A DNA stretch of 64,000 nucleotides. It comes from Kiloniellaceae bacterium. GTDB lineage: Bacteria > Pseudomonadota > Alphaproteobacteria > Kiloniellales > J153. This document shows positions 14,097 through 47,213 of the stretch, piece after piece (positions within the stretch are counted from its first letter, which is position 1; every line of letters starts with the position of its first letter). Both the position numbers and the translations under genes were made by a program. Under the pieces are notes generated by a model. The model was not told the origin of the DNA, ran no database searches, and was given only the letters and a program-made list of their open reading frames with translations. The stretch covers positions 665-64,664 of the forward strand of contig JAJFGN010000068.1 of assembly GCA_021776115.1 (NCBI GenBank), given 5' to 3'.

Positions 14097-14107
14097 GGCT
14101 ATCGCCC

Positions 14108-19389: not shown

Positions 19390-19417
19390 ATGGACGGCCC
19401 TTGTGCGTGACGATGGC

Positions 19418-20512: not shown

Positions 20513-20594
20513 GAGAGTCCAGACTGGGTCTGTTAAAAGTGGGTGATTTAGAAGCCGTGCCGGAAGAAGCGAACCCTACTGTGGGGCGGGTAAT

Positions 20595-32634: not shown

Positions 32635-32639
32635 ACCGC

Positions 32640-34127
32640 TCAGGCCAAACTCCCCGACCGCTTAAGTGCGGATAGGGAATCAAGGCCTTCACGTACGAGG
32701 CGGACAAAATTCTGCTTGTAAAACGCTAGCACGCTAGCCGATAGAACGGAGTGGTGCGTCATCGTGCGCAGCTGGCTGTCGAGGTCGTATTCGTAGTCGA
32801 GGAAATAATCTTTCTTGGCGCCTTGGCGCTGTTGTTCAGTTCCAAGATAGGGCGAGAAGAAAGCAACGGTCACATTATCCGGATCCAAGGCCTGGTTGAA
32901 GGTTATCGTTTCCAGAATAGATTCCTCAGTTTGGTCAGGAATACCGATAATGTTGTATGCCGTTCGGCGGATCTCTGCCTCGCGAAGCAACATGAAGGCC
33001 CGCACGATGGCGCTCTGATTGCTGAATCGGTTCAAAATATCCTCTCGGAATCCCTGGGTAGACAATTCGATACCCATACCGACGCCATCGACTCTTAGGC
33101 GTTTCAGCAGCGGGATAGTTGAGGGGTTAATGCCTTCAGGTCGAGTTTCTATATAGAGCCGTATCGGCATTTCGTTCGCATCAAAGAGGTCTGCTAGCTC
33201 CAGCAACGTCGACTTCTCGATAGTCAGGAAGTTTGTGTCCTGGCAACGGAACAGTGTAATGCCATACTCGTTGTGCAAGGTCACAATCTCTTCAAAAACG
33301 CGTTTCGCGCTCTTGTGCCGAAGATAGCGATTGAACTCGCGCAGCGCGCCGCGTGGCGTCGTCTCTTCAAAGCCGTAGTAGCGCTGAATCACCGTTTCAA
33401 CGCAGTAGCTACAGGTGAATGGGCAGCCGCGCGACAGCTCGTAGTCGACCGCCCTAACAACCTCACCGCAATAGGGGCGCAGGAACGTCTGGTCGTCGAA
33501 CAGGCTGTAGTCGTAGGGGCCGATGGCGTCGAGATCGGAGATAATTTGCTGGCGGGGGGCCTCGATGATATCAGTGCCATCGCGGCTGATCAGGCCGGGA
33601 ATCCGGTCGAGGCCTTCGCCCGATTGCCATGCGTCGACAAAGTCTTGGAGGACAAATTCGGATTCGCCGCCGATGAAATAGTCGACACCGGAAAAGCGTA
33701 TCGCCGTCTCGCCGGCGGACGCTGTCGGTTGCAGGCCCCCGCAAACCTTAATCGCCGGGCATGAGGTTTGAGCTATCAAGTCGTGACCGAATTGGATGGC
33801 GGCGTATTCGCCCTCGCCGTGGATATGGGCCGATATTGCCGCCCAGAAAATAATGTCTGGCGCAAACTCGTCGAGCTTGGCCTGGAGCGCGGTCGTGACC
33901 GGTGTGTCGCTAAACCTCACCAGGCTCTCGTACGCAGAAGGTTGGTACTGCAGGTTGGCCGTGTTGAAGGCGTTTTCGTTTTGCGCCCAGTCGCGAAAAA
34001 AGGTCGCATCGAACAAGGCGACCTCGTGGCCGCGGGATTTCAGCACGGCAGTATGGCTTGCAATCCAGATGGGGGTAATGCCGCGCCCCCAACGACTTGG
34101 GTTTAACAATAGCACCCGTGCCATCAT
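32640..34127 (-). CDS. B12-binding-domain radical SAM enzyme (class B, methyltransferase candidate)
   Basis: N-terminal Rossmann-like B12-binding region (MMARVLLLNPSRW...KSRGHEVALFD) and the radical SAM cluster motif SRGCPFTCSYC (CxxxCxxC). Confidence 0.8.
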   Translation of the reverse strand: MMARVLLLNPSRWGRGITPIWIASHTAVLKSRGHEVALFDATFFRDWAQNENAFNTANLQYQPSAYESLVRFSDTPVTTALQAKLDEFAPDIIFWAAISAHIHGEGEYAAIQFGHDLIAQTSCPAIKVCGGLQPTASAGETAIRFSGVDYFIGGESEFVLQDFVDAWQSGEGLDRIPGLISRDGTDIIEAPRQQIISDLDAIGPYDYSLFDDQTFLRPYCGEVVRAVDYELSRGCPFTCSYCVETVIQRYYGFEETTPRGALREFNRYLRHKSAKRVFEEIVTLHNEYGITLFRCQDTNFLTIEKSTLLELADLFDANEMPIRLYIETRPEGINPSTIPLLKRLRVDGVGMGIELSTQGFREDILNRFSNQSAIVRAFMLLREAEIRRTAYNIIGIPDQTEESILETITFNQALDPDNVTVAFFSPYLGTEQQRQGAKKDYFLDYEYDLDSQLRTMTHHSVLSASVLAFYKQNFVRLVREGLDSLSALKRSGSLA

Positions 34128-34856
34128 TTACTCTCCACGCATCCGTCGGTTCGCCTCGGCAAGTTCGATCTCGTAGTCGATGTCGATCGATTCACGATCG
34201 AGGCAGAAAGGCAAAATGTTATCACCGGTCAGAGACCTCTTCTCGAAAATCGTCGCCGGACGGGTGATGTCGATAAATCCGTCCTGCTGATAAACGGTTG
34301 GCAGCATTTGACGGGCTTGATTGTAAGGTTCGTCGATATCCGGAAGGCTGAGTAGGGAAGACAAGAAACCACCGTCCGAAAGCCGCCACATCTTGTAGGG
34401 TGAGAAGCAGGCGGCGGTTACGGCGCGCAGCGAATCCGCCTCCGGCCGTTCGGCAATCAGCCTAATCGCGCGGTCAATCTGGTCGATATCCCGAATGGGC
34501 GTTGTCGGCCGCAACTGGACGACCAGATCGGGTGCATACCGTTCGTTGTCGCGCAACCAGGTCAAGGCGTGGTGGACGAACTCATAGTCGCTGCTCAGGT
34601 CCTGGGCAAACTCGCTGGGTCGAAGGAATGGAACCTCGGCGCCTGCGGCCCGGCCGACTTCGGCGATCTCCGGCTCGTCGGTCGTCAAAATGACCCGTGT
34701 GATGCAGGAGGCACGGCGTGCGTGCTCGATTGCGTGGACCACCAGCGGTTTTCCACCAACCTCGCGCAGATTCTTGCGCGGCATGCTTTTCGATCCGCCG
34801 CGCGCCGGCACTAGGGCCAGAACCTCCAAGCCGGCGCCCTTGTTCGACCCGGTCAT
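34128..34856 (-). CDS. Acylneuraminate cytidylyltransferase family (CMP-ulosonic acid synthetase) #2
   Basis: VLALVPARGGSKSMPRKNLREVGGKPLVVHAIE and VVQLRPTTPIR. Confidence 0.85.
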   Translation of the reverse strand: MTGSNKGAGLEVLALVPARGGSKSMPRKNLREVGGKPLVVHAIEHARRASCITRVILTTDEPEIAEVGRAAGAEVPFLRPSEFAQDLSSDYEFVHHALTWLRDNERYAPDLVVQLRPTTPIRDIDQIDRAIRLIAERPEADSLRAVTAACFSPYKMWRLSDGGFLSSLLSLPDIDEPYNQARQMLPTVYQQDGFIDITRPATIFEKRSLTGDNILPFCLDRESIDIDYEIELAEANRRMRGE

Positions 34857-35365
34857 TTGGCGTGTTCTTCCGGATTAGCAGGGGCATACACCAGGCCCAA
34901 AACGTTTTCGGCCAGTTCACGCGCAGCGCCGTCGCCGCCCTTGGATGTCAGCACCGTACGGGCGGCGGCCAATACCGTGAGGTGAGCGTCGGCGACCGCG
35001 ACGGGAAACCCCACCGATGCCATGGCGGTCAGGTCGTTCAGATCGTTACCCACGAAAATCACCCGGCCGAGATCGATGCCTGCTTGTCGGCAATGCTGGA
35101 CCAAGGCCTGCTTCTTATCCCTGACATTCTGCAGCACGGGGGTGTGCAGTTTCTCGGCGCGCCGCGCCACGACCGCATTGCGTTCCGTGGAGAAAATCAT
35201 AACCGGAATACCGGCCAAACGGAACATGTCGAACCCGAGACCGTCGGCACGATTGCACACGACGCCCTCACGCCCATCTTCCAAGACGATTACACGGTTG
35301 TCCGTGAGCACGCCGTCAAAGTCGAAGACGATCAAGTCGATAGAGTTGCGACTAATGGGTTCCAT
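34853..35365 (-). CDS. KdsC-family HAD-IIIA phosphatase (ulosonate-phosphate phosphatase)
   Basis: IDLIVFDFDGVLTDNRV, DGLGFDMFRLAGIPVMIFSTE and FVGNDLNDL. 170 aa. ATGA overlap at 34853-34856. Confidence 0.8.
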   Translation of the reverse strand: MEPISRNSIDLIVFDFDGVLTDNRVIVLEDGREGVVCNRADGLGFDMFRLAGIPVMIFSTERNAVVARRAEKLHTPVLQNVRDKKQALVQHCRQAGIDLGRVIFVGNDLNDLTAMASVGFPVAVADAHLTVLAAARTVLTSKGGDGAARELAENVLGLVYAPANPEEHAK

Positions 35366-35373
35366 TCCAGAGA

Positions 35374-36558
35374 TTAACGTTCTAGCCCGCAGAAAAGCGA
35401 TTCAGCCGTATGATTGAATAGTCGGGCCTGTGCCCTCATTTGCTGACGCGCCGCACCGAAGCGGCCGCGGATATCGTTGGGATCGGAGAGCACACGATCT
35501 ATCATTGCCGTCAGGCGATCCGCCATGTCGGCGTCGAAGGCGTCGACGGCTAGATCGGAGATGCCGATATTCGCCAGGAAATCGCTCATTCTGTTCTGAG
35601 TCGTCAGCGGAATCATTGGTGTGCCAAGACCGATGCTGGGTGACATTGAATGAACGCGCATGCTGATGATCAAGTCAGCTTTGCGATAGCGTCCATAGAA
35701 ATGCCGACTCCCTGAGATCCGAGCTAGGCCGGTTGAAATCATCCTCTGATGCGCCAGGGCCGGTTTGCACATGTCGATGAAGTCGGCAATCATCCGCAAA
35801 TCATCGAAATAATGGGGGACGAGAATAAGGTTGACATCCCAACGTACTAACATCCGCTCGACTGCGACGACGATCTCCCGTAGCATTTTCGCCCGGCGCT
35901 CGGAGCTGCCGTAGCGAAATTCCGCGTCCTCATCATTGAACGCCAGCAAAACGTTCGAGCGACCGCGCTCAAACTCTGGATACTCTGTATCCTCTTCTGC
36001 CGGCAAGAATACACCGGGATCCGGAATGACGTGAAGGTTGTCTCCAGAGATCCCGAACCGCGAGGAGAGCCACTCCCGCGTGCCGTCGTTGCGCAGTGCC
36101 AAGAGCATGTTACGCCGACCGAGAATGTGATCGATGGTCCAGCACAAATTATCTGCATGATGATACGGTTGATTATCCCAGTGTCGGTACGAGATGCCGT
36201 AGAATACCAAAGGCGCTTCAATCTGTGACCATAACGGTCTTGGCAGATTGAAGCGCATGCCGGCGTCGGCATAGAATTCACGGCCATTGATGGCAACGGC
36301 CCCGCCGACGAGCATGCCATCCGATCGATCGTTGATTAGCGAGACGAATTTCTGATCGAATTGCTTGAGACCGAAAGTGTAGTCATCCCAAGGTTCGCGG
36401 GACCATTTAATAGGGCGCGCGAAATCTTCCTCGATAACTCGCTCGGCCCCTTCCGTTAACGCGCCGTTTCCTACGTTCGCGCTGTTTCCGTTGACTAAAT
36501 GAATCAGCGATAGCGTGGATTTCCGGGTGGACATTCTCCGTCTTTCCATTGCCTGCAA
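35374..36558 (-). CDS. Polysaccharide pyruvyl transferase family protein (WcaK/CsaB-like)
   Basis: General resemblance only: N-terminal NSANVGNGAL and C-terminal DLIISMRVHSMSPSIGLGTPMIPL. Confidence 0.55.
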   Translation of the reverse strand: MQAMERRRMSTRKSTLSLIHLVNGNSANVGNGALTEGAERVIEEDFARPIKWSREPWDDYTFGLKQFDQKFVSLINDRSDGMLVGGAVAINGREFYADAGMRFNLPRPLWSQIEAPLVFYGISYRHWDNQPYHHADNLCWTIDHILGRRNMLLALRNDGTREWLSSRFGISGDNLHVIPDPGVFLPAEEDTEYPEFERGRSNVLLAFNDEDAEFRYGSSERRAKMLREIVVAVERMLVRWDVNLILVPHYFDDLRMIADFIDMCKPALAHQRMISTGLARISGSRHFYGRYRKADLIISMRVHSMSPSIGLGTPMIPLTTQNRMSDFLANIGISDLAVDAFDADMADRLTAMIDRVLSDPNDIRGRFGAARQQMRAQARLFNHTAESLFCGLER

Positions 36559-36560
36559 CG

Positions 36561-37436
36561 TTACCCAACTCGGCGAAGTTTGCTTTTGATCGGCACCTCA
36601 TCGGCCAACACGCGTTTGACACCATCGCCGTGGACGACAGGCCACATCGCGATATACTTCGACAGAAGGTCCATCCCTCGTGGCTCTAAGCTTGCCGCTT
36701 GGTCGCTGCCCCACATCGCTCTGTCCAGCGTGATATGCCGTTCGACAGCGCAGGCGCCGAACCCAGTTACGGCCATAATGGACGGCATAACGCCGACTTC
36801 ATGGCCGCTATAACCGAGCGGAAGGTTGTATCTTTCACGTAATGTATTGATCACTGACAGGTTGAGTTCATGGTCTTTAGATGGGTATGTCGACGTCGTG
36901 TGCATCAGCACCAGGTTCGCGCCGCGCAGTAATTCCACAGCATGATCGATCTCGTCTATGGTGCTCATACCGGTCGATAGAATGATCGGACGGCCGGTCG
37001 CCTTGATCCGTTTCAAAAGCCCATCGTCGGTTAGGCTCGCCGATGCGATCTTGTAGCAAACCGGATCGAAGGGTTCGAGAAAATCGACGCTGGTCTCATC
37101 CCATGGTGAGCAAAACCAATCGATCCCCTTTTCGCGGCAGTATCGGTCGATCTCCATATATTCGTCTTTCCCGAACTCCAAACCATGCTTGAGATCCCCG
37201 TTTGTCGTCCCAAACGGCGATTCGCGCGAGCGTGCGAGATCCTCCGGCGTGAAGACGATTTCTATGGTACGCTTCTGGAACTTGACGGCGCTGAACTTGT
37301 GCTCGACGGCCTTATCGATAAGTCGCCGGGCGATGTCGATGTCGCCGTTGTGATTAATGCCGATTTCTCCAATGAGATAGCAGGGTTCGCCGGGGCCGAC
37401 GCGCCGACCGCCAATTGTAATCGCTTTCTGCGTCAT
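36561..37436 (-). CDS. NeuB-family ulosonic acid (phosphate) synthase, short form lacking a SAF domain
   Basis: 291 aa. CYLIGEIGINHNGDIDIARRLIDKAVEHKFSAVKFQ, FCSPWDETSVDFL, YKIASASLTD, GRPIILSTGMSTIDEI and LMHTTSTYPS. The protein ends about 50-60 aa short of SAF-containing NeuB/PseI. Confidence 0.8.
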   Translation of the reverse strand: MTQKAITIGGRRVGPGEPCYLIGEIGINHNGDIDIARRLIDKAVEHKFSAVKFQKRTIEIVFTPEDLARSRESPFGTTNGDLKHGLEFGKDEYMEIDRYCREKGIDWFCSPWDETSVDFLEPFDPVCYKIASASLTDDGLLKRIKATGRPIILSTGMSTIDEIDHAVELLRGANLVLMHTTSTYPSKDHELNLSVINTLRERYNLPLGYSGHEVGVMPSIMAVTGFGACAVERHITLDRAMWGSDQAASLEPRGMDLLSKYIAMWPVVHGDGVKRVLADEVPIKSKLRRVG

Positions 37437-37482: not shown

Positions 37483-38910
37483 CTAAAGCGCGAGCTTTTC
37501 AGGCGGAACTCGATGGCTGTGGCTGAGGCCGGTTAACTCTTGCATTAGGGCCTGGCGGACGCGTTCACTGGATTTTCCATCCGCATTCCCCGTCCACTTG
37601 GCAAGGGCGGCAAGAGCTGCCGGACCAAGCTGCTCACGGATCGAGCTTGGCGATTGACAGTGACGCTCAATGCGGGCGACCAGATCCTCCACCGAACTCG
37701 CGTGTTCCACGGCGTCATGGAGTTCCACATTGAACCCATGATAACGAGGATCAAGGGCCTCTCCGAAATGCGGTACAACGACCGGCTTGTTGACGGCCAG
37801 TGCCTCAAGCAGAACCGTCGTATTGTGGCCGCAAACGACCCAACTGGCTTCAAGTAGCGGTGTCGCCTCGCCCGCTGCGACAATCCGGAGGTTCTTAGGG
37901 CGCTTTCCTTCCTGATCGAGCAAGGCCGCGACCTCGTCACGCTCATGGACACGAGGACGAACGATGACGTCGTAGGTGGGGTTTCTTTCCGCCAATAGGA
38001 TGGCCGCGCGGTAGGTGCCCCGGCAGAGTTCGTCCCATGCCAGGTCGCTGTCGATCCCAGAATAGCTGGGGAGGAAGTTGTTCGGTAGAAAGGCCAGCAG
38101 CAACACCGTCGGTTGTGGCGAGCGGAGGGGGACACTCCCCGCGGCGGCTAGCCGGCGCCATTTATGATTGCGATCGAGACGCGGCATGCCCACGATGGTG
38201 ATCTGATCGGGGCGGGCGATATACCCTTCGATTTGGTGATCGCGCTCCGACTCGTGGTAAACGAGCACCCGCCGACCAGTAAATTGCCCGCGTTCCTTGC
38301 GAAACAGTTCCCGCAGCATCTTACTTCTCTCTGGCGGCTTAATGCCTTCCTTGTGTAGCACGACGAATGGCGTTCCATTCGCTTCGAGCTCACTGGCAAG
38401 TTCGCGTTCCGCCCAATAACACCAGTTACCCGTCAGGACAGCGTCGTACCTCGACACCATCGACATATATCGCCAGATTTTCTTCCATAGCTTGCGATAG
38501 CGTTGCTTCGCCCGCGTGGCAGCAGGATCGTCGGAGATATAGGCATCGTCACCGCAAATGGTACGTGGCAATATGCCCAGTGCCAGCGACTTTAGTACCG
38601 CGCGCCTCACGCCAAACGCTTGAATCTCCTTCGCTTCGCCGAGGACTTCCAGCACATCTTCGACAAACACCGCCTTTTCAATTACCAGAACACGATGTGG
38701 TGCCGGGCCGCCGGTCAGTGGGCGGATCGTCTTGTGTATTAGGTACGCAGCCGGAAGCGCGAGCCCAAGCTTCGCCAGGATTGGCAACAGCGGCAATGCC
38801 ACGTCAAAACTGCTGCGCGCCTTGGCCAGCACCTTGATGAGGCGGTAGTAGTTCGTAAGCCTTTCGGCAATGTGGCTGAGACGAGGCGTCATCGATCGAT
38901 CGGCCTTCAT
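37483..38910 (-). CDS. GT-B-like hypothetical protein (degenerate HP motif)
   Basis: VIVRPRVHER followed by VVCGHNTTVLLEALAVNKPVV. Start moved from 39048 to ATG 38910 (MKADRSMT), which removes the overlap with the upstream gene. Confidence 0.35.
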   Translation of the reverse strand: MKADRSMTPRLSHIAERLTNYYRLIKVLAKARSSFDVALPLLPILAKLGLALPAAYLIHKTIRPLTGGPAPHRVLVIEKAVFVEDVLEVLGEAKEIQAFGVRRAVLKSLALGILPRTICGDDAYISDDPAATRAKQRYRKLWKKIWRYMSMVSRYDAVLTGNWCYWAERELASELEANGTPFVVLHKEGIKPPERSKMLRELFRKERGQFTGRRVLVYHESERDHQIEGYIARPDQITIVGMPRLDRNHKWRRLAAAGSVPLRSPQPTVLLLAFLPNNFLPSYSGIDSDLAWDELCRGTYRAAILLAERNPTYDVIVRPRVHERDEVAALLDQEGKRPKNLRIVAAGEATPLLEASWVVCGHNTTVLLEALAVNKPVVVPHFGEALDPRYHGFNVELHDAVEHASSVEDLVARIERHCQSPSSIREQLGPAALAALAKWTGNADGKSSERVRQALMQELTGLSHSHRVPPEKLAL

Positions 38911-38930
38911 GTCGTGTGCGGTGTGTGGTG

Positions 38931-40709
38931 TCAAACCGGCTGCAGTACGGCCGCGGATTTGCGGTCGCACTGGCTGTCCATCTGTCTCGGCACGGGAACG
39001 TGATTGCTGCCGTCCGCGGCAATGAATTCTCCCTGACGGGCCACCCACTCATCTTCGGAGCACGCCAAGGCGTCAATGAAGGGGAGGTAGCGTTCGATCC
39101 GGGCGGAACGAATCAGCTTGTGCAAGGGTTGTTCCCGCACGCTTGAGGGCTTGTGGTAGGGGAACGGCCATTGCATGACGAAGTGAAAAATGAAATGGAA
39201 CAGAGCCGCCTCCTTCGCCGCCTCCTGTTCGAACGGCGGAACTTCCGGCAATGCGGCGAGTCGGCGCAAGTGCGCGAAATACGCATCGGTCGATTCGCTA
39301 TCTACGGTAAAGCCCCGCCGACTGTAGTAGACAGTCGCACCGACCACGGCCGTCCTGCCCAGCATCGCCATTTCCATTCCGGTCGTCGAGGAAAAGACGA
39401 CACCAAACTGGCACTTCTCGATCAGGTTGTAGGTGTTCACGGCCTGATCTCCGGGAATCATGGTGAGTCGCTCATGCCCGTTGAAATCCGCAAGGGTTGC
39501 TTCACTACGCTCTTTGCCACCATAGGAGGCGGCTTCCCCGGGATGGGCCCGCACAACCACATGAATGTCGGTTTGCGTCAGCAAAAAGCGAACCGTTTGC
39601 AGTAGCCACTCTCTCATGCTGGGGAAAAGGCCCAGCAACGTGGAGTAACCGGCATCGTAAGGGACGTTGGTGCAGACCAGAACAAAGCGCCGGCCGTCCT
39701 CGACACCCGCAGCGCGCAACGTTTCCTCGAGGGTCTGATCGGGCGATTTCTGCAAAGCCCAACCCCAGTTGGCGGTGGAGGCGTGGCGGCGTTCGTCCAG
39801 CAAAGTCAGAGCGCGATTCACGGCGAAGCTTCGAAAAGGCTCGTTGTGATAGCCAAGCTCCTTGCGATGCCGCCAAGCGGCATCCACGTCGTTGAAGGCC
39901 AGAAAGTGATCGCCGTGGTTGAGCACTCTCACGCCCCGAAAGTCAAACTTCTCAAAGGCATTCACGGGCAGGCCCAGGGCCTTGGCCGTCTGACAGAATT
40001 GCGCCGTCTCGAAGGTGGCGCCATTGGGGACCAGGACCATATCGAAGTCGACCCGATGTCGTGATAAGTACGCCATGGCGATGGCTCGGGTATTGCGGGC
40101 CTGCGTCTTGTAGTAGGTCCATGCCGTCCTCACATCCGGGTCAGTCATATCGATGGTTTCGCGGCGGGTGTACATTATTGTGTCGCTGAGCACCTGCGCG
40201 TTTAGGACCTCTTTGTCGATCGAGATGTTCTCGACCGGGATGTCCGAGAGGTCGACGCAACGTAATCTGCCGCCACTCAGTCGTTTGACACGGCCGAGAA
40301 CTGCCCGCAGGTAGGGCTTCGCGCTCGGATGATCCTCGAGAGGTGGTTTGATGGGACTTTGCAATTTGGGCAGGTAGCCCATGGTAACGCTGTGTCCGCG
40401 CCAGGCCAGAAGAATGGCGACCATGAAATCGTGGGTGAACTGAATCCGGTAGGCGGTAAACAGAAAGATGCGCTTGGGCGGCGGCAACGGATAGGCGGGC
40501 GCCGCATTGAGAGCGCTCAGCCATGCCGGAAGGTGTGCGCTGAGCGACCACTTATCGTTTGGGGTCAGGCGGGTCACGACCGGCGCGAGCGCGAATATCA
40601 AACGCCGCGCAATCGGGCCCGGGTGGCGGTGGGCATAGATGTGGTCGGGAAGCCACTCCAGCCCTTGCCGCAGTCGACGCGCCAATCTTTGGGTGATGGT
40701 CAGGGACAC
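38931..40709 (-). CDS. GT-B-like protein with HP motif; candidate CMP-ulosonate transferase
   Basis: 592 aa. HVVVRAHPGEA followed about 55 aa later by VVFSSTTGMEMAMLGRTAVVGATVYY, which resembles the capsule-synthesis (KpsC/KpsS-type) C-terminal motif. Confidence 0.4.
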   Translation of the reverse strand: MSLTITQRLARRLRQGLEWLPDHIYAHRHPGPIARRLIFALAPVVTRLTPNDKWSLSAHLPAWLSALNAAPAYPLPPPKRIFLFTAYRIQFTHDFMVAILLAWRGHSVTMGYLPKLQSPIKPPLEDHPSAKPYLRAVLGRVKRLSGGRLRCVDLSDIPVENISIDKEVLNAQVLSDTIMYTRRETIDMTDPDVRTAWTYYKTQARNTRAIAMAYLSRHRVDFDMVLVPNGATFETAQFCQTAKALGLPVNAFEKFDFRGVRVLNHGDHFLAFNDVDAAWRHRKELGYHNEPFRSFAVNRALTLLDERRHASTANWGWALQKSPDQTLEETLRAAGVEDGRRFVLVCTNVPYDAGYSTLLGLFPSMREWLLQTVRFLLTQTDIHVVVRAHPGEAASYGGKERSEATLADFNGHERLTMIPGDQAVNTYNLIEKCQFGVVFSSTTGMEMAMLGRTAVVGATVYYSRRGFTVDSESTDAYFAHLRRLAALPEVPPFEQEAAKEAALFHFIFHFVMQWPFPYHKPSSVREQPLHKLIRSARIERYLPFIDALACSEDEWVARQGEFIAADGSNHVPVPRQMDSQCDRKSAAVLQPV

Positions 40710-40715
40710 CGAGGG

Positions 40716-42518
40716 TCAGCCTGCGTTCCGAAAATAGCCGGTCTTGATATTCGCGGCATAACTCGACGACGGTTCGGCCAACCATGCGCCTAGGCATTCG
40801 CGCTCGCGCGCCAGCGCCGGATCTCTCTCGCCATAGCGGTGTAGAATATCTTTGTAGAGGACCGGTCCGCTGGAATCACAGCGCATTTCGATTAGGCCAG
40901 CATCGGTCGGCGTTGGGGCTAGGGCAAGGGAGATCAGCGCCAGGGCGCGCTGGCGCCCCGCTTCATCCGGCGCTGGCAGGTCGTCAGCTGTCCGCAACAG
41001 CCGGATGTAGTCTTCTCGGGATACGGCTTGCTGAACGAAACCCCAATTGCCGTAGAAGCTGCGGTCAGCGGCGATTACGGGAAGTCCGTGCGCGGCAGCC
41101 TCGAGGCCCACTGTGCCATGCACTGTGACGACGATGTCGGCGGCGGTTAGGGCGGTGAGCGAATCCGTGTCCCGGGGGGCGAGGCGCACGTGCGACGGCA
41201 GATCGCCCACCATATCCTGCAGCCGGAAGCCCCCGTACCAGCTCTCGGCGGGATGCGGTTTCAAGACCCAGTCGATATCCGGGGCGGCGCACACTTCCGC
41301 CATGGTCAGGTGCATCCAGTCTAGGAAGTCCGTGAAGTTGCGCATGGCGAAAGTGTGCGGAAAATCGAACCAGACATGTGAATAGATGACGGCAAGCTTG
41401 CGTGCGCCGGTCACACCGAGGGCACGGCGTGCCTCGGCGCGCGAAGGCGCCTTAGAGTGCAGGCGGAACGCATAGCGGACGTTGATGTCCGTGCCCTGGC
41501 CCGACTCACGCCGCGCCAGGTACCGCGCCCCTTCCTCGGACAGCCTTTGCCGCACAATTGCGGGCAAAGCCTCAAATTCGCTTAGGCTCAGGTGCTCCAC
41601 CGGGGTTGCATAGTCGTTGGTATTGAAGAAACGACGAATGCGAATACCCTCGCAGTATCCAGTTAGGTGATGGGCGGGCACGCCGTGGGTCAGGGCTGCC
41701 CACATCAAGGTGGCGAACTCGTTCTTCCAGGGGTGGCTCACGATCACCTGGGCGACCGGCGCCGTTTCCAGCAAGTCCTGATAGATGGCGCAGTTCCGCA
41801 AGCACTCCGCCAGGGTGCGCTCCCATAACGGGTTGCCCAGCGCAGGCTGCGGGTGGCGCGCCAGCTTCAATACGGTGTCGTAGTAGGTATAGGCAGGCAG
41901 CCCCTCGGGTAGTGGCAGGGCCAGAACGTCGGCATGACAACGGACACCGGCAAGCAAAGCGCGGGCCTGGGGCCGAAAGGCCTCGGTGCGATGGCGCGGA
42001 TGGTCTTCGATGGCAATGAACTCAGTAAAGCCCAAGCTTTCCAGCGCCGGTCGGGTGCGGTCGCCGGTCCGGCCAAGAACACCGATCAAGCGCGTGGTCT
42101 CGATGCCAGGGAGGGCCTCAAGAAAAAGGCGCAATCGAAAGAAATGATTCGGGTTGTCCCACAATCCGTCCGCCACGACGGTCTGCGGTCCGGCGCCATT
42201 GGTGACGGGGCCGAGCTTGTCGTAGAGGTGGTTGACTCGTTGCCGATACCATTCTGTGTGCCACTGCCGTGCGAGCCGGGTTCCGGCTCGCGCCCAGGCC
42301 CCAGGGCTGGTGATCTTAGCCAGGATCCGGGTCATGCGGGCACGGCTGTCTGCAGTCGGCCGCGACAGCCATAGGCCCGGCTCATTGCGGCGAAGGCGGT
42401 CTCCTTGCCCTTCAACCCGCAGGGAGGCGGGAAGATGAATCTGGTCGCCAAGCCGCGGTGGAATGCTGGAGGGCTCACCCATTTGTCCGAATCTACTTGT
42501 CGTTGCGCCGGTCGACAA
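40716..42518 (-). CDS. GT-B-like protein with HP motif; candidate CMP-ulosonate transferase
   Basis: About 600 aa. [10 protein letters not shown] followed by [33 protein letters not shown]. Start uncertain (ATG at 42482 is an alternative). Confidence 0.4.
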
Positions 42519-43569
42519 AATCGAATTTCAGCGCCGTTCCGCGCTTGATCGACTGTGCCGCCCTTCGGCCGAGAACATCGCGCAAGTGCTTTGGCGCCAG
42601 GCCATAGCCGGGCCGGATGGAGCGGACATTGCGTGCCGTGAACGCCTCGCCCGCTGCAATATCTTCAACCACGTATAGCGAGCGGCGGAAGATTACATTC
42701 TGATGCTCGCTCTTCTTTCTCGTGTAGCCGGCCGTGCCCAGCGCATCCCAGGCGGTGCGGCAGTCACGCGCGAGGTCGGCCAGTTCGTCCTGCTCAAGCG
42801 AGAAGGTGGCATCTGGTCCGCCGTCAGCGCGGGACAGGGTGAAGTGCTTTTCGATGACGCAGGCACCCAGCGCAATAGCAGCCACGGATACCGCCGTGCC
42901 AAGGGTGTGATCGGATAGGCCGGTCAGGGTGTCGAAACGTCGTGTCATGTCCGGAATGGTTGTGAGGTTGTAATCCTCCGGCGGGGCCGGGTAGCCGCTG
43001 ACGCAATGCAGCAGGACGATGTTGGCGCATCCGGCGTCGCGCGCCACTCCCACGGCCTCGCTGATTTCCGTCTCGTCGGCCATGCCGGTGGAAATAATCA
43101 GGGGTTTCCCGGTCGCCGCGGCCTTGGCGATGAGCGCGTGGTCGATGGCCTCGAAGGAGGCAATTTTGTAGGCTGGCGCATCCAGGGACTCCAGGAAATC
43201 GACGGCCGTCTCATCGAAGGGACTGCTGAAGACCGTGATGCCTAGATCGCGTCCCTTGGCGAACAATGCCTCGTGCCATTCCCAGGGCGTGTGCGCCTCC
43301 TGATACAAATCGTAAAGCGTGCGCCCGTCCCACAGGCCGCCCTGTATCCGGAATTCTGGTCCGTCATGGTCGATGGTCAGGGTGTCGGCGGTATAGGTTT
43401 GCAGCTTGACCGCATTGGCCCCGGCGGCCTTTGCCGCGTCCATGAGGGCAAAGGCGCGATGGATATCACCATTGTGATTGCCCGACATCTCGGCGATGAC
43501 GTAGGGCGAATATCCTGGTCCGATCGGGCGGCCGTCGATCGCAATCGCGATGTCTTTATCGTTTCTCAC
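42493..43569 (-). CDS. pseI: Pseudaminic acid synthase
   Basis: [58 protein letters not shown] and [11 protein letters not shown], plus a C-terminal SAF-like segment ([27 protein letters not shown]). GTG start with GTGA overlap at 43566-43569. Confidence 0.85.
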
Positions 43570-45056
43570 GGCATTGGCCGGGGTTCGCTAACATAATGGC
43601 TGGCATCGACGGGGCGGTAGCCGGCACGCTTGAACAACCTATGCGATGCTGCGTTGCCGGGCAGCACTTCTGCCACCAGGCGCGCGCCGGGAAAAAGCGC
43701 GCGCCCCAGCGACAACGCGGCGGTGGCGATGCCGAGGCCATATTTGTCCGGATCGACGAGGACCGAGACCTCGTAGATATCGGAGTCTTCCGCCCGGTCC
43801 AAGCGCAGCACGCCAGCAGGTGCCCGATCATGCAGGACGAGGCACAGGACACGGTTTGGGTCGCCTAAGGATGCCTGCACCCAGGCCTTGTGCTCGTCGT
43901 TGGTTGGCGATCGAGGCGTGCGAGCATAGTGCCGTGTCTGGTCGGCGGCTTGCCAGCGAAACATGACCTCGGTATCCGCTGCCAAGGCCAAGCGCAGCGA
44001 CACGACGTTCCCGTCACGGGCGCGCGTAGTGGGCAGCAGCGCGCAAAGGGTTCTAAGCGTACCCCTGCCGTCACACAGCTGCGCCGCCCGTTCGCGCATG
44101 CCGAGAAGATCGCCGCTATCCGCGGCCAGATCGTTGATAGCGCGGGCAACCGCCGCCGGCGTCAAGGTATCGCTCCGCCCCAGGAGCCGTGCAGCACCAG
44201 TCCTCGCCAGTTCCTTGGCGGTCAGGTTCTGATTGTCGGCGGCGGTCACGACGAGGCTCGGCACGCCAAGGCAGCACCGCTCCCAAGTCGATATGCCGGC
44301 TGCGCCGATTGCGAGATCCGCGCGTATCATCAGGCCGGCCATATCCGTGACCTGGGCATGAAACTCGACGGCCTGCGCCATGGTATCGGCAAGGCTGCGC
44401 AAACCTTCGCCATGGGGCGAGGCCGCCCCAATCACCACATCCACGGCGGCGTCGATGCCGCTTTGGGCAATGCCTTCAAGAACGATCCTCGTAATGTTGT
44501 GCGGGTCGCTGGCGCCAAGACTCACAAGAATCTGCCGCATATACGGGCTTTCACGCCGCCGCCCCAGAGCTTGCGTCCGTGCCGCGGCAAACTGCGGGCG
44601 CAAAAGGGCGAACCGGGAGCCCAGAAGCAGGTAGCACCCGGTGGGAACGAGCGGCCGATAGTCGTCTTCCCGCCGTCCGGGAGCCTGGTCCAGAAGGAGA
44701 TCGCAATCGTGGCAACGATCAGCGAGATCGTCGATGACCATGATACGCTGTGCCCACGGCCGGCACGCGGTCTCGAATTTGGCATCGCGTTCGTAGTGAT
44801 CCACGATCATGAGATCGCATCCTTGTGGCCAACGACGGAACAGGGCCGCCGCTTCGTCGCCGAAGTCCGCATCAAGCTGGGCGATTTGGTGCTGGCCTTC
44901 TAACAAGGCTGGGATAACGACCGTAGTCTCTGCGGCGCAGGCAAACGCGCATGTCCAACCAGCCGCGCTCAGCGCGTCGGCGAGGGCAAGGCACCGCATC
45001 GCGTGTCCACCGCCGATGTGCGCGGAAGCTTCAACCCTTATAACCGCGAAGGGTAT
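43566..45056 (-). CDS. pseG: Fused PseG (UDP-2,4-diacetamido-2,4,6-trideoxy-beta-L-altropyranose hydrolase) / PseH-like GNAT acetyltransferase
   Basis: GT-B PseG-like body and a C-terminal GNAT ([19 protein letters not shown]...[13 protein letters not shown]). The first canonical ATG is at 44999. The frame stays open upstream and encodes the conserved PseG N-terminus (I)[18 protein letters not shown], so I place the start at ATA 45056 (see finding). End and frame are secure; the start is not. Confidence 0.75.
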
Positions 45057-45060
45057 GGCG

Positions 45061-45687
45061 CTATCCCTTCCTGAACAGCCACCACGTCAGATTGTCGAGG
45101 CCGGTCGCGCGCTTCCAGAAGAAGCCGTAGTCCAACAGCGTCAGGTCTGAGTGGCCAGTCATCCAGAAATCTCCGAAGTCCCGCCTGAACAATAATCCGG
45201 CATGACCGCGGTAGGGAATTTCCTCTTCCTTGTCGGAAAAGTACTCGCAGCACATGATGTACTTCGACGACACGCGGTGGATTTCCTTGCACGCCTGCGC
45301 GAGGTCGCCAGGTGCGATGTGGATCAGTACGCCGCTGGTGAAAGCCATATCGAACTCGCCGTCCGCGAAGGGCAAGTCGCCGGCCGCCGCATCGAAGACA
45401 GCCTCCTTCGGAAGAACCCCGTCGCCGACCAGCCGTTCGCGGGCGTCGGGATTGGGCTCGACGGCGGTCCGGCGCGCGGTGGTCAGCTGCTTCAGCGCCC
45501 GCATGTTGAGCCCGAGGTTGGCGCCGACCTCAAGAATACTTTTCGGTTCATCGCCGACGAGCGGGTCGAGAATGCGTGCCCACATACGCGCACGTGCGCA
45601 TAGCGCCACATCGTCGGCAACATTGCGCTTCGTATACTCATCACCGAAATCGCCGCGCCAAGCGTCCAATTGTTTGGTTCCGGTCAT
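45061..45687 (-). CDS. Pseudaminic-acid-biosynthesis-associated methylase family protein
   Basis: 208 aa. N-terminal QLDAWRGDFGDEYTKRN and ILEVGANLGLNMRAL match my recollection of the Pse-cluster-associated methylase family. Sits between the cytidylyltransferase and pseG. Confidence 0.65.
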   Translation of the reverse strand: MTGTKQLDAWRGDFGDEYTKRNVADDVALCARARMWARILDPLVGDEPKSILEVGANLGLNMRALKQLTTARRTAVEPNPDARERLVGDGVLPKEAVFDAAAGDLPFADGEFDMAFTSGVLIHIAPGDLAQACKEIHRVSSKYIMCCEYFSDKEEEIPYRGHAGLLFRRDFGDFWMTGHSDLTLLDYGFFWKRATGLDNLTWWLFRKG

Positions 45688-45699
45688 ACCGGTTCTCGC

Positions 45700-46440
45700 C
45701 TATGCTCTTGATATTGTGGTTCGGCCGCGATCGCCCATGTGCGCGTTGATCGCGGTGATTTCGGGGTGTTTGGCTATCACAGCCATGACCGCGTCGTATC
45801 CGGCGATGGCCGGGCCTGCCGGGAGGTGGGTAAACACCGTGCGAAAAAACTCCATATCCTCTGGAAAATCGAGAGTCCAGCGCATGAATTCCGTCTCGCC
45901 TCCCGGGCCGGGCAGGGCGGCGCGCTTGACCCCGGGCTGGGTACGTAGCCACGGAGTGACGTGTTCGCGCTCGTAGCAATCATTGGACTGCTGTGCCGCA
46001 CGGTCCAAGGCGCTGCGCGTGAACGCCTCGCAGTCGAGACCATGAGGCCAGGCGGGCGGCATGTTGTTGCATGCATAGTCGGCACCCTCCGCTGCGAGCA
46101 AATCCAAGACCCGGGCATTGATGTCCGGGTCACTCAATGGGCAATCGGAGGTGACGCGCATGATGATCGTAGCGCCGATAGCATCGGCAGCAACCTTGAA
46201 CCTGCCGAGTACATCGGTTTCGGAACCGCGCACCACCGTGGCGCCGCAGCGTTCCGCTTCCCGGGCGACACCGTCGGAGTCCTCGGTGTTCGGAATGGCG
46301 CAGCACACGTTGTCAATACCTCGAGTGACGCGACATCGCTCGATCACATGCGACAGCACGCTTCGGTCCGCAAGGTCTTTCAGCACTTTGCCGGGTAAAC
46401 GAGTGGATCCAAATCGCGCCTGTATGATGGCGGCCTGCAA
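45700..46440 (-). CDS. Cytidylyltransferase of the SpsF/COG1861 type (CMP-pseudaminic acid synthetase candidate)
   Basis: (M)QAAIIQARFGSTRLPGKVL, RVTSDCPL and RWTLDFPEDMEFF. Start moved from 46584 to TTG 46440, preceded by AGGA, which removes a 134-nt overlap with the upstream gene. Confidence 0.7.
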   Translation of the reverse strand: MQAAIIQARFGSTRLPGKVLKDLADRSVLSHVIERCRVTRGIDNVCCAIPNTEDSDGVAREAERCGATVVRGSETDVLGRFKVAADAIGATIIMRVTSDCPLSDPDINARVLDLLAAEGADYACNNMPPAWPHGLDCEAFTRSALDRAAQQSNDCYEREHVTPWLRTQPGVKRAALPGPGGETEFMRWTLDFPEDMEFFRTVFTHLPAGPAIAGYDAVMAVIAKHPEITAINAHMGDRGRTTISRA

Positions 46441-46450
46441 TGAGCCTATC

Positions 46451-47206: not shown

Positions 47207-47213
47207 CGAGACG

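Follow-up and report, generated by a model that had tools for sequence, protein, structure and literature searches.

A 49-kb surface-sugar island in the DNA analysed here (a stretch of 64,000 nucleotides, the window) most likely carries four genes, A to D, for enzymes that join three sialic-acid-like sugars to a glycan. All four products are probably CMP-ulosonate transferases, with B and C predicted to be retaining, D predicted to be inverting, and A an uncertain case. Our favoured reading, held with moderate confidence, is that they are cytoplasmic GT-B enzymes that take donors with a CMP leaving group and install the island's three CMP-nonulosonic acids (NulOs) on a lipid-linked glycan. The four genes are unstudied, and the resemblance of two of them, B and C, to the capsule enzyme KpsC is an expected kind of find and a useful one. 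The genes and their neighbours are listed below; coordinates follow the public gene calls, which differ slightly from those of an earlier sequence-only reading of this DNA.

37483 to 38892, minus strand: gene A (469 aa; the open reading frame reaches 39048), a divergent relative with a KpsC-like C-terminal domain, without the HP histidine and the nucleophile Asp
38931 to 40709, minus strand: gene B (592 aa), KpsC-like, a candidate for a retaining ulosonate transferase, with additional helical regions at both termini
40716 to 42482, minus strand: gene C (588 aa; the open reading frame reaches 42518), KpsC-like candidate retaining CMP-Pse transferase
14108 to 15574, minus strand: gene D (488 aa), GT-B protein of canonical type, a candidate for the first cassette's inverting CMP-nonulosonate transferase
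42493 to 51472, minus strand: Pse cassette, by Pfam and NCBIfam matches PseB, PseC, WbuX amidotransferase, HisH-like, HisF-like, CMP-transferase, methyltransferase, PseG-PseH fusion and PseI
42493 to 43569: PseI of the Pse cassette
32017 to 37436, minus strand: second cassette, with a 291-aa NeuB without SAF domain, pyruvyl-transferase-like, CMP-transferase, radical SAM and RNase_T-like genes
36561 to 37436: the second (291-aa) NeuB
13512 to 21338, minus strand: first cassette, around D, with SIS isomerase, D, CMP-transferase, HAD phosphatase, methyltransferase, NeuB-cupin fusion, GFO/IDH/MocA oxidoreductase and NTP-transferase
15571 to 16299: CMP-transferase gene upstream of D
20595 to 21338: NTP-transferase of the first cassette
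26277 to 28091, minus strand: fused TMD-NBD ABC exporter (Pfam ABC_membrane and ABC_tran)

In the Pse cassette, PseI, PseG and WbuX exceed their own curated cutoffs. The gene positions had been read correctly: C, B and A lie between PseI and the second NeuB, and D lies in the first cassette, where it overlaps the stop of the CMP-transferase gene by 4 nt. Three NeuB and three CMP-transferase genes were counted in the island, and synteny pairs C with Pse, D with the NeuB-cupin fusion and A with the 291-aa NeuB; the proposed count, one transferase for each activated sugar and one more, agrees with this. In other genomes, too, each transferase is paired with one sugar cassette, and B comes after C.

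The sequence-only reading placed the four proteins in one family by a common C-terminal layout, an [RK]xHP element followed by a second element. All eight peptide strings that it quoted are present in the four minus-strand open reading frames, and the elements are arranged as follows.

Protein A: first element VIVRPRVHER at aa 315, second element at aa 358, 43 aa from start to start
Protein B: first element VVVRAHPGEA at aa 384, second element at aa 437, 53 aa from start to start
Protein C: first element at aa 417, second element at aa 463, 46 aa from start to start
Protein D: first element VVYRPHPWGG at aa 284, second element at aa 349, 65 aa from start to start

The spacing had been given as 45 to 60 aa. 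Taken by itself, [RK]xHP is a weak signal, since 7 of the 56 window proteins contain it where about 3.3 would be expected, and one of the seven is an unrelated dioxygenase-like open reading frame; it is conservation within families that makes it meaningful. The His-Pro pair is invariant in 37 B-family, 45 C-family and 40 D-family sequences, and the second-element Glu does not vary within any of the four families. Profile comparison with hhalign bears out the common layout, relating B to C at 99.5% probability (E 3e-23), C to D at 95.0% (E 4e-8), C to A at 93.9% (E 1.6e-7) and B to A at 89.8%. The B-D and A-D comparisons were not significant on their own, and pairwise BLAST among the four was significant for B-C alone. 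Judged by their sequences, the four are remote relatives in a remote superfamily with at least two predicted mechanistic types rather than one family, the nucleophile Asp being present in B and C and missing in D and A. Against a profile of KpsC-N, KpsC-C and KpsS, hhalign gave 95.1% for C (E 3e-8), 84% for B, 77.5% for D and 76.6% for A. Six other GT-B proteins of the island, used as controls, reached at most 14% against the four families and 0.1-0.6% against the Kps profile, and a NeuC-type epimerase reached at most 0.9% against the four families.

B and C resemble the KpsC/KpsS enzymes (GT107; PF05159, Capsule_synth), with which B shares a modified GT-B fold. A structure comparison with KpsC had been proposed, and the AlphaFold model of B (pLDDT 91.6) has KpsC entries as its first Foldseek matches in the PDB (8fux, 8fuw, 6mgc and 6mgb; target TM-score 0.53-0.56); other GT-B proteins reach at most 0.36 among the best 50 matches. 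Sialyltransferase structures of GT52, GT80 or GT38 are absent from the best 50 fold matches for B and for D. Matches to curated models are marginal or sub-threshold: PF05159 is matched by B at 20.6 bits and by C at 21.2 bits (cutoff 20), as well as by 17 of 45 C-family members, and NF046086, discussed below, is matched at 35-41 bits (cutoff 200). PDB sequences are matched only weakly by the profiles (E 0.017-0.11). The C family aligns to E. coli KpsC at 91.7% hhalign probability (E 7.6e-7), with its Asp on Asp160, KPHP on KVHP and HGTxGxE on TSQYGFE, and B alone gave 7-19% against single KpsC or KpsS sequences, which is not significant. The motifs of the two proteins are as follows.

41364 to 41378, minus strand: C, HVWFD (aa 369-373), equivalent of the KpsC QXXXD loop; D373, predicted nucleophile, aligns to KpsC Asp160
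41250 to 41261, minus strand: C, KPHP (aa 408-411), CMP-phosphate motif by alignment to KpsC K192-V-H-P, 37 aa beyond the Asp
41100 to 41120, minus strand: C, HGTVGLE (aa 455-461), predicted start of the ribose/phosphate-binding helix, aligned to KpsC TSQYGFE
39936 to 39953, minus strand: B, EKFDFR (aa 253-258); E253 is a candidate general base, counterpart of KpsC E66 in EDGFVRS
39654 to 39668, minus strand: B, NVPYD (aa 348-352), NxxxD form of QXXXD; D352 predicted nucleophile
39540 to 39551, minus strand: B, RAHP (aa 387-390); R387, H389 and P390 invariant
39372 to 39392, minus strand: B, SSTTGME (aa 440-446); G444 and E446 invariant, S440 and S441 at least 90% conserved

In the C family, D324, H361, P362 and E412 (alignment numbering) are invariant in all 45 sequences, H361 and P362 corresponding to H410 and P411 of the 588-aa gene call. 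In the B family, N348 and D352 are invariant (37 sequences), and NVPYD aligns to the Asp of the C-family WFD and is in register with KpsC IVLVVDQTFND. A predicted beta-strand (residues 383-387) ends in RAHP, SSTTGME aligns to the SSQMGFE/TSLSGFE region of KpsC, and (K/R)xHP lies 37 residues past the Asp in both B and C. When aligned to the Kps profile with hhalign, B E253 falls on KpsC E66; the family conserves E253, K254 and F255 to 90% or more and never varies F257, and E253 may have a catalytic role. The C-family residue opposite KpsC Glu66 is non-acidic, and a Glu 2-3 residues off is, as a guess, a candidate for the base.

B and C thus have in common with KpsC/KpsS the QXXXD-loop Asp, a (K/R)xHP about 35 residues on, and an S/T..G.E followed by G.PV....Y..WG, and B also matches the EDGF-like Glu loop. 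They differ from these enzymes in that the similarity is at the Pfam cutoff and QXXXD has lost its Gln, with Asn there in B and His (HxxxD) in C. Moreover, each consists of a single module with added helical regions, 588-592 aa in all, whereas KpsC has about 320 aa per module, and they are tied to Pse genes and have no kps export locus, with a donor that is probably not Kdo. KpsS1 of Acinetobacter baumannii, a KpsS relative and retaining Pse5Ac7Ac transferase (GT118), provides a precedent for a KpsS-like enzyme that uses CMP-Pse with retention (PMC12887879). By its description it falls in the superfamily of B and C, and its gene accompanies those for Pse biosynthesis. Its reported identity to KpsS is 30%; B and C stand much further from KpsS (7-75% hhalign probability). 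The retaining Kdo transferases WbbB (GT99) and KrkA (GT140) diverge so deeply that each founds a new GT family (PMC9587256, PMC12887879); neither is among the best 50 fold matches for B, and both act on Kdo and place the general base differently.

From the observed fold, homology, motif conservation and synteny we infer donors, stereochemistry and catalytic roles. Published work identifies the QXXXD Asp as the nucleophile, the HP His as a contact of the CMP phosphate and a Glu as the general base (PMC10148158, PMC12887879). C and B would accordingly be placed in the KpsC/KpsS-type superfamily of retaining ulosonic-acid transferases (GT99, GT107, GT118, GT140) and would act by double displacement. 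The Asp of the [H/N]xxxD loop (D373 in C, D352 in B) would attack C2 of the CMP-sugar, with the (K/R)xHP His (H410 in C, H389 in B) and the S/T..G.E helix holding the CMP phosphate and ribose. An N-domain Glu (E253 in B) would then activate the acceptor hydroxyl, and displacement of the enzyme-sugar adduct would give net retention. C lies directly downstream of PseI here and in nine other genome loci, and Pse or WbuX-HisHF genes are found within 10 kb in all 15 C-anchored loci having upstream sequence; C is probably a transferase for CMP-Pse of the acetamidino type. B would add the next ulosonate, with Pse, another NulO or Kdo as possible donors; it also occurs where a Pse cassette is the only one visible (locus L017).

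The motifs of D point to a different chemistry.

14705 to 14716, minus strand: D, RPHP (aa 287-290), aligned to C-family KPHP
14504 to 14530, minus strand: D, SPLSTIIIE (aa 349-357), second element, aligned to TarL DYSSLIYE and C-family HGTxGxE
15020 to 15046, minus strand: D, NSWDNPSTK (aa 177-185), N-domain acidic loop; D180 candidate general base

Residues Y286 to G292 (YRPHPWG, including H289/P290), S349-I354 and E357 show no variation across 40 sequences. M176-N181 and K185 are likewise invariant, and D180, which is aligned with the Glu of the C-family YCEG, may be catalytic. The D model (pLDDT 88.2) matches generic GT-B folds (UDP-GlcNAc 2-epimerases, GT1), with TagF at rank 40. D has the HP and second motifs and a deletion at the place of the nucleophile loop; direct (inverting) displacement is predicted, as in the Tannerella forsythia Pse/Leg transferases and TagB/TagF-type enzymes. 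The T. forsythia model NF046086 (BFO_1060_trans), which covers the Pse- and Leg-derivative transferases Tanf_01245 and TFUB4_00887, is matched by 40/40 D-family members (best E 3e-14, below threshold) and by 35/39 of the A family. Pse or Leg addition in T. forsythia depends on its founding members, GT-B/TagB-like proteins that have an HP motif and whose genes lie directly beside CMP-NulO biosynthesis genes (PMC5420450). D shares their HP motif and A does not; D matches the N-terminal part of the model only and A the C-terminal part only, and at the bit scores given above neither is a member. In the window and in loci L002, L003, L025 and L026, D is at most two genes away from a CMP-transferase, with a NeuB close by. 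The NeuB-cupin fusion, oxidoreductase, CMP-transferase and D are kept together in L002, L003, L013, L020 and L025, L011 keeps this set except for the CMP-transferase, and L026 has D in a different (NeuB+NeuC) cassette type. The donor of D would likely be the product of the adjoining NeuB-cupin/CMP-transferase cassette.

A is the most divergent of the four in its motifs.

37948 to 37962, minus strand: A, VRPRV, at the (K/R)xHP position with Arg in place of His (R313 in the 469-aa call), aligned to B RAHP
37804 to 37830, minus strand: A, GHNTTVLLE, second element; T365 and E369 (numbered from the ATG at 38910) invariant

Its HP motif had been called degenerate, which understates the change: the position holds R-P-R or K-x-K (K-S-K or K-T-K) in 39/39 family members and His-Pro in none, and the QXXXD Asp is likewise absent from all 39. 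CMP-dependence of A is consequently read from gene context. The family has below-threshold matches to TIGR04396 (36/39), and A has a hydrophobic segment at aa 31-52, possibly an N-terminal helix. A abuts the 291-aa NeuB cassette in L001, L004/L010 (one contig) and L006, with the second-cassette gene order of the window following A in L004/L010 and NeuB and CMP-transferase kept in L006; in L005, a NeuB/NeuC/CMP-transferase cassette is flanked by two tandem A-type genes. A retains the fold and, in its N-domain, an invariant Glu; tentatively, it would serve the 291-aa NeuB cassette as its transferase, a basic residue making the phosphate contact in place of the His. The claim that the four are the island's CMP-ulosonate transferases is well supported for B and C by KpsC-like fold, Asp, HP, S/T..G.E and Pse-cassette synteny, and reasonably for D by the invariant RPHP, the matches to the genetically validated T. 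forsythia family and the CMP-transferase/NeuB neighbours; for A it comes from gene context.

Several other explanations merit consideration. B, and possibly C, might be true beta-Kdo transferases that use housekeeping CMP-Kdo to make a Kdo linker or cap for ABC-transporter export, independently of the island NulOs. Their nearest fold and profile matches are Kdo transferases, an ABC exporter is kept nearby, and L017 shows one NulO cassette, leaving B extra relative to cassette number. We nevertheless consider this unlikely, given that C adjoins PseI in nine other genomes, every informative C locus has Pse or amidotransferase genes, the Kdo-carboxylate-binding Gln is not retained, and the superfamily transfers Pse too, as KpsS1 illustrates (PMC12887879). 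In addition, the island lacks KpsM, KpsT, KpsE and KpsD genes, its ABC protein being a fused MsbA/PglK-type half-transporter, and beside B there was no sign of a kdsB or kpsF-type gene pair. D, for its part, has a layout like that of the CDP-glycerol/CDP-ribitol phosphotransferases TagF/TagB/TarL (PF04464), with (I/L)LYAx, xHP, an S-rich motif plus acidic residue and KP, and shares their CMP leaving group, so it could be a phosphotransferase adding a polyol- or sugar-phosphate from a CDP-activated donor. PF04464 (Glyphos_transf) is the sole recurrent Pfam match of the family, found weakly in 17/40 members (best E 6.7e-7), the second motif of the D profile matches TarL (E 0.012), TagF is among the fold matches, and the cassette has an NTP-transferase gene. 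Matches to CDP-glycerol glycerophosphotransferases had been named as evidence against CMP-ulosonate transfer; at the Pfam level the D family has them, but they do not discriminate, because CMP is released by TagF-like enzymes too, and the T. forsythia proteins proven to transfer NulOs are TagB-like (PMC5420450). The phosphotransferase assignment seems quite improbable to us: those enzymes move polyol-phosphate and no sugar, the window protein itself has no PF04464 match, hhalign to the E. coli TagF-like K2 polymerase gives 4.4% only, and no TagD, TarI or TarJ-type gene was recognised. All 40 D homologues match the NulO-transferase model, and five independent contexts, including L026, place D at most two genes from a CTP_transf_3 CMP-sugar synthetase and near NeuB.

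For A, a role outside CMP chemistry is possible if somewhat doubtful: it could be an NDP-sugar GT-B enzyme for an ordinary sugar, such as the NulO acceptor residue, or a non-catalytic, scaffolding paralogue of B and C. The missing His and Asp favour this, as do a second motif whose best PDB sequence match is GT1 CalG4 (E 0.0066), an NDP-sugar enzyme, and a distant locus (L027) with tandem A-type genes and no NulO genes within 7 kb. Yet the His position is always basic, family members match the BFO_1060 and TIGR04396 models, and A adjoins NulO cassettes in the window, L001, L004, L005, L006 and L028; high conservation, with an invariant N-domain K-E (K187/E188) among many further invariant residues, argues for an active enzyme. 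The view that the motifs amount to general GT-B features and HP dipeptides arising by chance, with no specific ulosonic-acid link, is already disfavoured and very hard to credit. The occurrence of [RK]xHP in non-GT proteins, the wide spread of the second motif (G.E...G.PV) among GT-B families and the isolated B-C BLAST match are what it would explain, but HP is invariant in three deep families, the four families reach 77-95% against the Kps profile where island GT-B controls stay at or below 0.6%, and the NeuB/CMP-transferase synteny holds in many taxa.

Returning to the NulO-transferase reading, the lipid-linked glycan bearing NulOs would be exported by the island's fused ABC transporter, which is likely the export step. 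Its homologue adjoins C, B or D family genes in L002, L003, L007, L011, L013-L018, L021 and L025-L028. The FlmG flagellin Pse/Leg transferases (TPR + GT-B) are alphaproteobacterial NulO transferases as well, whereas A to D have no TPR repeats. Separately, the island encodes at 21348-23063 a protein whose TPR + GT architecture is like that of FlmG.

A sequence-only reading had proposed four large genes in a surface-sugar island as one candidate family of CMP-ulosonate transferases that share an [RK]xHP motif. The underlying observation is borne out, as all four open reading frames are present on the minus strand with every quoted peptide inside them and the motifs are as described. With lengths taken from the public gene calls, these genes are as follows.

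37483-38892, minus strand: A, candidate CMP-ulosonate transferase, 469 aa
38931-40709, minus strand: B, candidate CMP-ulosonate transferase, 592 aa
40716-42482, minus strand: C, candidate CMP-ulosonate transferase, 588 aa
14108-15574, minus strand: D, candidate CMP-ulosonate transferase, 488 aa

The genes are tightly spaced, with gaps of 10 nt from PseI (of the pseudaminic acid, Pse, pathway) to C, 6 nt from C to B, 38 nt from B to A and 46 nt from A to a NeuB gene, while for D there is a 4-nt overlap with the stop of the CMP-transferase gene upstream of it. No plasmid matches to 37483-42518 were found by megablast. The first motif is kept as RAHP in B, KPHP in C and RPHP in D, with an invariant His-Pro, and the second motif follows at a start-to-start distance of 43 (A), 53 (B), 46 (C) or 65 (D) aa. 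By itself the [RK]xHP motif is weak evidence, given that it is present in 7 of the 56 window proteins against approximately 3.3 expected. One of these seven is a dioxygenase-like protein of 326 aa (30171-31151, minus strand) with no Pfam match and an HxD...H pattern, which is typical of PhyH-like 2-oxoglutarate dioxygenases. We considered its RAHP as the mark of a fifth transferase and rejected this, as the protein looks like a dioxygenase by its HxD signature and does not resemble the four families; the RAHP is a chance occurrence. PhyH-family genes also adjoin D homologues in two loci from other genomes (L002 and L003).

Our profile comparisons place A-D in a probable remote superfamily of CMP-releasing GT-B transferases together with KpsC/KpsS and, more distantly, TagF-like enzymes. 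For this comparison, the KpsC and KpsS sequences of E. coli CFT073 were taken from the annotated genome. Against a three-sequence KpsC-N/KpsC-C/KpsS profile, hhalign gave 95.1% for C (E 3e-8), 84% for B, 77.5% for D and 76.6% for A, compared to 0.1-0.6% for six further GT-B proteins of the island used as controls. The four families are also related to one another, with 99.5% for B against C (E 3e-23), 95.0% for D against C (E 4e-8, with the HP and second motifs in register), and 89.8% and 93.9% for A against B and C across the C-terminal domain. In the capsule-synthesis profile search proposed in the sequence-only reading, the KpsC/KpsS family PF05159 is matched by B (20.6 bits) and C (21.2 bits) by a small margin over the gathering cutoff of 20 and is not matched by A or D. 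PF05159 is also the sole recurrent Pfam family among the C-family members, found in 17 of 45 at E <= 0.01. The AlphaFold model of B (pLDDT 91.6, pTM 0.91) has four KpsC entries as its best Foldseek matches in the PDB (E ~1e-7, target TM-score 0.53-0.56), which span the entire ~320-residue KpsC module, whereas other GT-B structures reach a TM-score of at most 0.36. The D model (pLDDT 88.2) is a canonical GT-B fold without a specific nearest family. No GT38, GT52 or GT80 sialyltransferase structure is among the top 50 Foldseek matches for either model, and no sialyltransferase was found in profile-versus-PDB searches with A-D. A single-sequence phmmer search of the B C-terminal domain against the PDB gave chance matches only. 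Through its homology to the modelled B, C probably has a KpsC-like fold as well.

The alignments to KpsC identify candidate catalytic residues in B and C. KpsC works by double displacement, with the Asp of a QXXXD motif as nucleophile, Glu66 as base and the HP His acting on the CMP phosphate (PMC10148158). The (K/R)XHP motif is common to sialyltransferases and GT99/GT107 enzymes, and KpsS1 (GT118), a relative of KpsS, transfers Pse with retention (PMC12887879). In the alignment of the C family with KpsC-N (hhalign 91.7%, E 7.6e-7), an invariant Asp falls on Asp160 of QTFND, KPHP on K192-V-H-P, HGTxGxE on TSQYGFE, and a trailing Y..WGF on PWYAGWGL. The putative nucleophile-loop Asp is invariant in B (NVPYD, D352) and C (HVWFD, D373). 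The Gln of QXXXD is replaced by Asn in B and His in C, and the Asp-to-His distance is 37 residues in both families versus 34 in KpsC. In addition, E253 of B (EKFDFR) aligns with KpsC Glu66 (EDGFVRS); C has a Thr at the aligned position and a Glu close by. Where the general base sits differs among known retaining ulosonate-transferase families (PMC12887879). Taken together, B and C appear to carry the full catalytic signature of retaining ulosonate transferases, a group that comprises GT107 (KpsC/KpsS) and the related GT99, GT118 and GT140. These residues are conserved at depth. Among 37 B sequences the invariant positions are N348, D352, R387, H389, P390, G444 and E446, and the 151 scored B homologues, mostly from Alphaproteobacteria, share 42-91% identity across the full length, a few being labelled 'capsule polysaccharide biosynthesis protein'. 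For C, which has 2742 representative homologue clusters at E <= 1e-3 and its nearest genome match in a Rhizobiaceae MAG (62% identity), the invariants among 45 sequences are D324, H361, P362 and E412 in alignment numbering, corresponding to D373, H410, P411 and E461 of the 588-aa protein.

D shares part of this signature. It has 887 homologue matches, and the invariants among 40 aligned sequences are YRPHPWG, YAGSS, MNSWDN and SPLSTI..E, with H289 and D180 as candidate catalytic residues. A six-residue deletion falls exactly at WFDFPH of C. D thus appears to carry the CMP signature minus the nucleophile, and because a retaining nucleophile is missing, an inverting mechanism is predicted. Among its fold matches, UDP-GlcNAc 2-epimerases and GT1 enzymes come first and TagF is at rank 40, which raised the idea that D is a divergent NeuC/LegG-type 2-epimerase. 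This idea was rejected, given hhalign of 0.4% to a NeuC-like protein, no Epimerase_2 Pfam match in 40 members, and the absence of an HRxEN-type motif. The sequence-only reading had held that a best match to CDP-glycerol phosphotransferases would refute it. The TagF-like family PF04464 is indeed weakly matched by 17 of 40 D homologues; the D of the window itself has no match at E <= 1, D scores 4.4% in hhalign against the E. coli TagF-like polymerase, and no TagD or TarIJ-type genes for CDP-polyol supply were recognised in the window. Such a match does not discriminate, however, because CDP-glycerol phosphotransferases also release CMP, and the validated nonulosonic acid (NulO) transferases of T. 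forsythia are TagB-like. Deletion of these T. forsythia genes, BFO_1060, Tanf_01245 and TFUB4_00887, removes a terminal derivative of Pse or legionaminic acid (Leg), and their products are GT-B/TagB-like proteins with an HP motif (PMC5420450). The BFO_1060 family model NF046086 is matched, far under its cutoff of 200 bits, by all 40 D homologues (best E 3e-14) and by 35 of 39 A members (best E 1.4e-11); 36 of these 39 A members match TIGR04396. Given scores of 41 bits for D and 35 bits for A against the curated cutoff of 200, both are distant relatives of the BFO_1060 family and not members. D has both the HP motif and the adjacency to CMP-NulO genes that characterise BFO_1060, whereas A has the adjacency only.

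Most unusual in our finding is the A family, which lacks HP. A has 90 homologue matches, and none of the 39 family members compared has a His-Pro at the first motif, which reads V-R-P-R in close relatives and V-K-[STGV]-K in distant ones; the Arg at the His position is R313 of the 469-aa protein (R319 from the ATG at 38910). The nucleophile-Asp position holds Asn or Gly. A carries neither hallmark residue. The interpretation of all four proteins as CMP-ulosonate transferases is supported in part: it is weakened here, while the putative retaining-type signature of B and C and the CMP signature of D favor it. The second motif of A has a GT1 enzyme as its best match, and an invariant K187-E188 (numbered from the ATG at 38910; the Glu is E182 of the 469-aa protein) lies in an 'HKEGIK' loop that is the counterpart of the EDGF region. 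A also has a possible N-terminal hydrophobic helix; no plausible helix was found in B, C or D, and the idea of transmembrane anchoring was dropped.

The genomic neighborhood connects these families to NulO synthesis. The island is one minus-strand gene run (2496-51472) with a single plus-strand exception, and has in total three NeuB and three CMP-sugar synthetase genes, together with GT2 and GT4 enzymes and two GDP-mannose-dehydratase-like genes. Its Pse cassette is complete, with PseB, PseC, a WbuX amidotransferase, HisH/HisF-like proteins, a CMP-transferase, a PseG-PseH fusion and PseI; PseI, PseG and WbuX exceed their curated cutoffs. The second cassette (32017-37436, minus strand) is unusual in its make-up, as a short NeuB (291 aa) that lacks a SAF domain is combined with a polysaccharide pyruvyl-transferase-like protein, a CMP-transferase, a radical SAM enzyme and an RNase_T-like protein of exonuclease fold. 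The third comprises a NeuB-cupin fusion, a GFO/IDH/MocA oxidoreductase, an NTP-transferase, an HAD phosphatase, a CMP-transferase and a SIS isomerase. With HMMs built for the four families and for island marker genes, we scanned 18 C-anchored genome loci and nine others. C directly follows PseI in 9 other loci, and Pse or WbuX/HisHF genes lie within 10 kb in all 15 C-anchored loci having upstream sequence. The gene after C is B in 9 loci and D in 5. D accompanies the NeuB-cupin/oxidoreductase/CMP-transferase cassette in L002, L003, L013, L020 and L025, and the oxidoreductase and NeuB-cupin only in L011; in L026 it lies 1 nt past the CMP-transferase of a different NeuB+NeuC cassette. In L001, L004/L010 and L006, A adjoins the 291-aa NeuB cassette; L004/L010 has the same second-cassette gene order, with the CMP-transferase fused to an HAD phosphatase in L004. 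L005 has a NeuB/NeuC/CMP-transferase cassette with two tandem A-type genes at its flanks, L028 has an A-type gene close to a NeuB-cupin cassette, and no NulO genes were seen within 7 kb of the A-type genes in L027. Each of the four families is syntenic with NulO genes. The taxa of the C loci include Magnetovibrio blakemorei, Thalassospira povalilytica, Devosia, Xanthobacteraceae, Rhodoplanes, Telmatospirillum and Tagaea, as well as MAGs of Prochlorococcus, Nitrospiraceae, Sulfuritalea and Phycisphaerae. Of these, the culturable M. blakemorei MV-1 and T. povalilytica have C together with B or D. Relatives of the island, and the island itself, are found in Rhodospirillales, Hyphomicrobiales, Magnetovibrio, Thalassospira, and even Prochlorococcus and Nitrospiraceae MAGs.

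Given these pairings, C would transfer a Pse derivative, D the NeuB-cupin product and A the second-cassette product, and B may add a further ulosonate, whether Pse, another NulO or Kdo. The glycan would be assembled in the cytoplasm and then exported via an ABC transporter. A-D are new, uncharacterised representatives of known enzyme types. A bolder reading, which we regard as rather unlikely, is that the surface glycan has up to three different NulOs, each attached by its own dedicated, uncharacterised transferase lineage, and that these lineages found new CAZy families. B and C would each be a retaining family of the [N/H]xxxD...HP type, D would be an inverting family with HP, and A would be a class without HP, its Arg or Lys standing in for the 'universal' CMP-binding His.

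To our knowledge, much less is known about the enzymes that attach Pse, Leg and related acids than about the biosynthesis of these sugars, and genetic or biochemical support exists for only a few of them, namely Maf, FlmG, KpsS1 and the T. forsythia enzymes. The locus provides four conserved and widely distributed candidate families, each paired one to one with a particular NulO cassette in its gene neighborhood and with explicit candidate catalytic residues for mutation, making donor specificity and retention versus inversion directly testable. These families are a possible source of new catalysts for chemoenzymatic pseudaminylation, and most members are now labelled 'hypothetical' or 'capsule polysaccharide biosynthesis protein', so annotation would also gain. 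The finding extends known enzyme types; it establishes no new principle and is not conceptually surprising, and its use is in annotation and enzyme discovery.

Several further features of the island were observed. The NeuB-cupin fusion (17842-19458, minus strand, 538 aa), a NeuB-family synthase with a C-terminal cupin domain, is also found in L002, L003, L011, L013, L020, L025 and L028, and the equivalog models for NeuB and PseI both fail to match it. The oxidoreductase, HAD phosphatase and CMP-transferase are conserved with it, and the phosphatase suggests a pathway via a phosphorylated intermediate. Within the Pse cassette, the fusion of PseG, a UDP-sugar hydrolase, with a PseH-like GNAT acetyltransferase (43566-44999, minus strand, 477 aa) is kept in related loci. 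The WbuX-type N-acetyl-sugar amidotransferase and HisH/HisF-like glutamine amidotransferase/cyclase genes (46451-48985, minus strand) lie inside this cassette and point to an acetamidino (Pse5Am-type) derivative; all three are conserved beside C-family genes even in the Prochlorococcus and Sulfuritalea MAG loci (L014, L022). At least 11 SAM-dependent methyltransferase genes are found in this one glycan island (4638-30174, many genes), including those at 4638, 8611, 9513, 11400, 16973, 28256, 29143 and 45061, an FkbM type at 24009 that is the sole plus-strand gene, and a TylF-like one at 25525, and this number implies a heavily methylated glycan. A fused TMD-NBD ABC exporter of MsbA/PglK-like type (26277-28091, minus strand, 604 aa) is a conserved neighbor of the C, B and D families in most related loci, and we saw no export genes of the Wzx, Wzy, Wzm/Wzt or Kps types.

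FlmG, the alphaproteobacterial flagellin Pse/Leg transferase, has a TPR plus glycosyltransferase architecture. The same two-part architecture, N-terminal TPR repeats with a C-terminal TIGR04372-family glycosyltransferase domain (126 bits versus a cutoff of 45), is present in a 571-aa protein of the island (21348-23063, minus strand); no counterpart of its gene was seen in the related loci. The protein could be a candidate fifth NulO transferase, and it hints at protein glycosylation. Just beyond the island, and unrelated to A-D, lies a conserved plus-strand trio of a circularly permuted ATP-grasp, an alpha-E domain and a transglutaminase-like protein (53405-56734).
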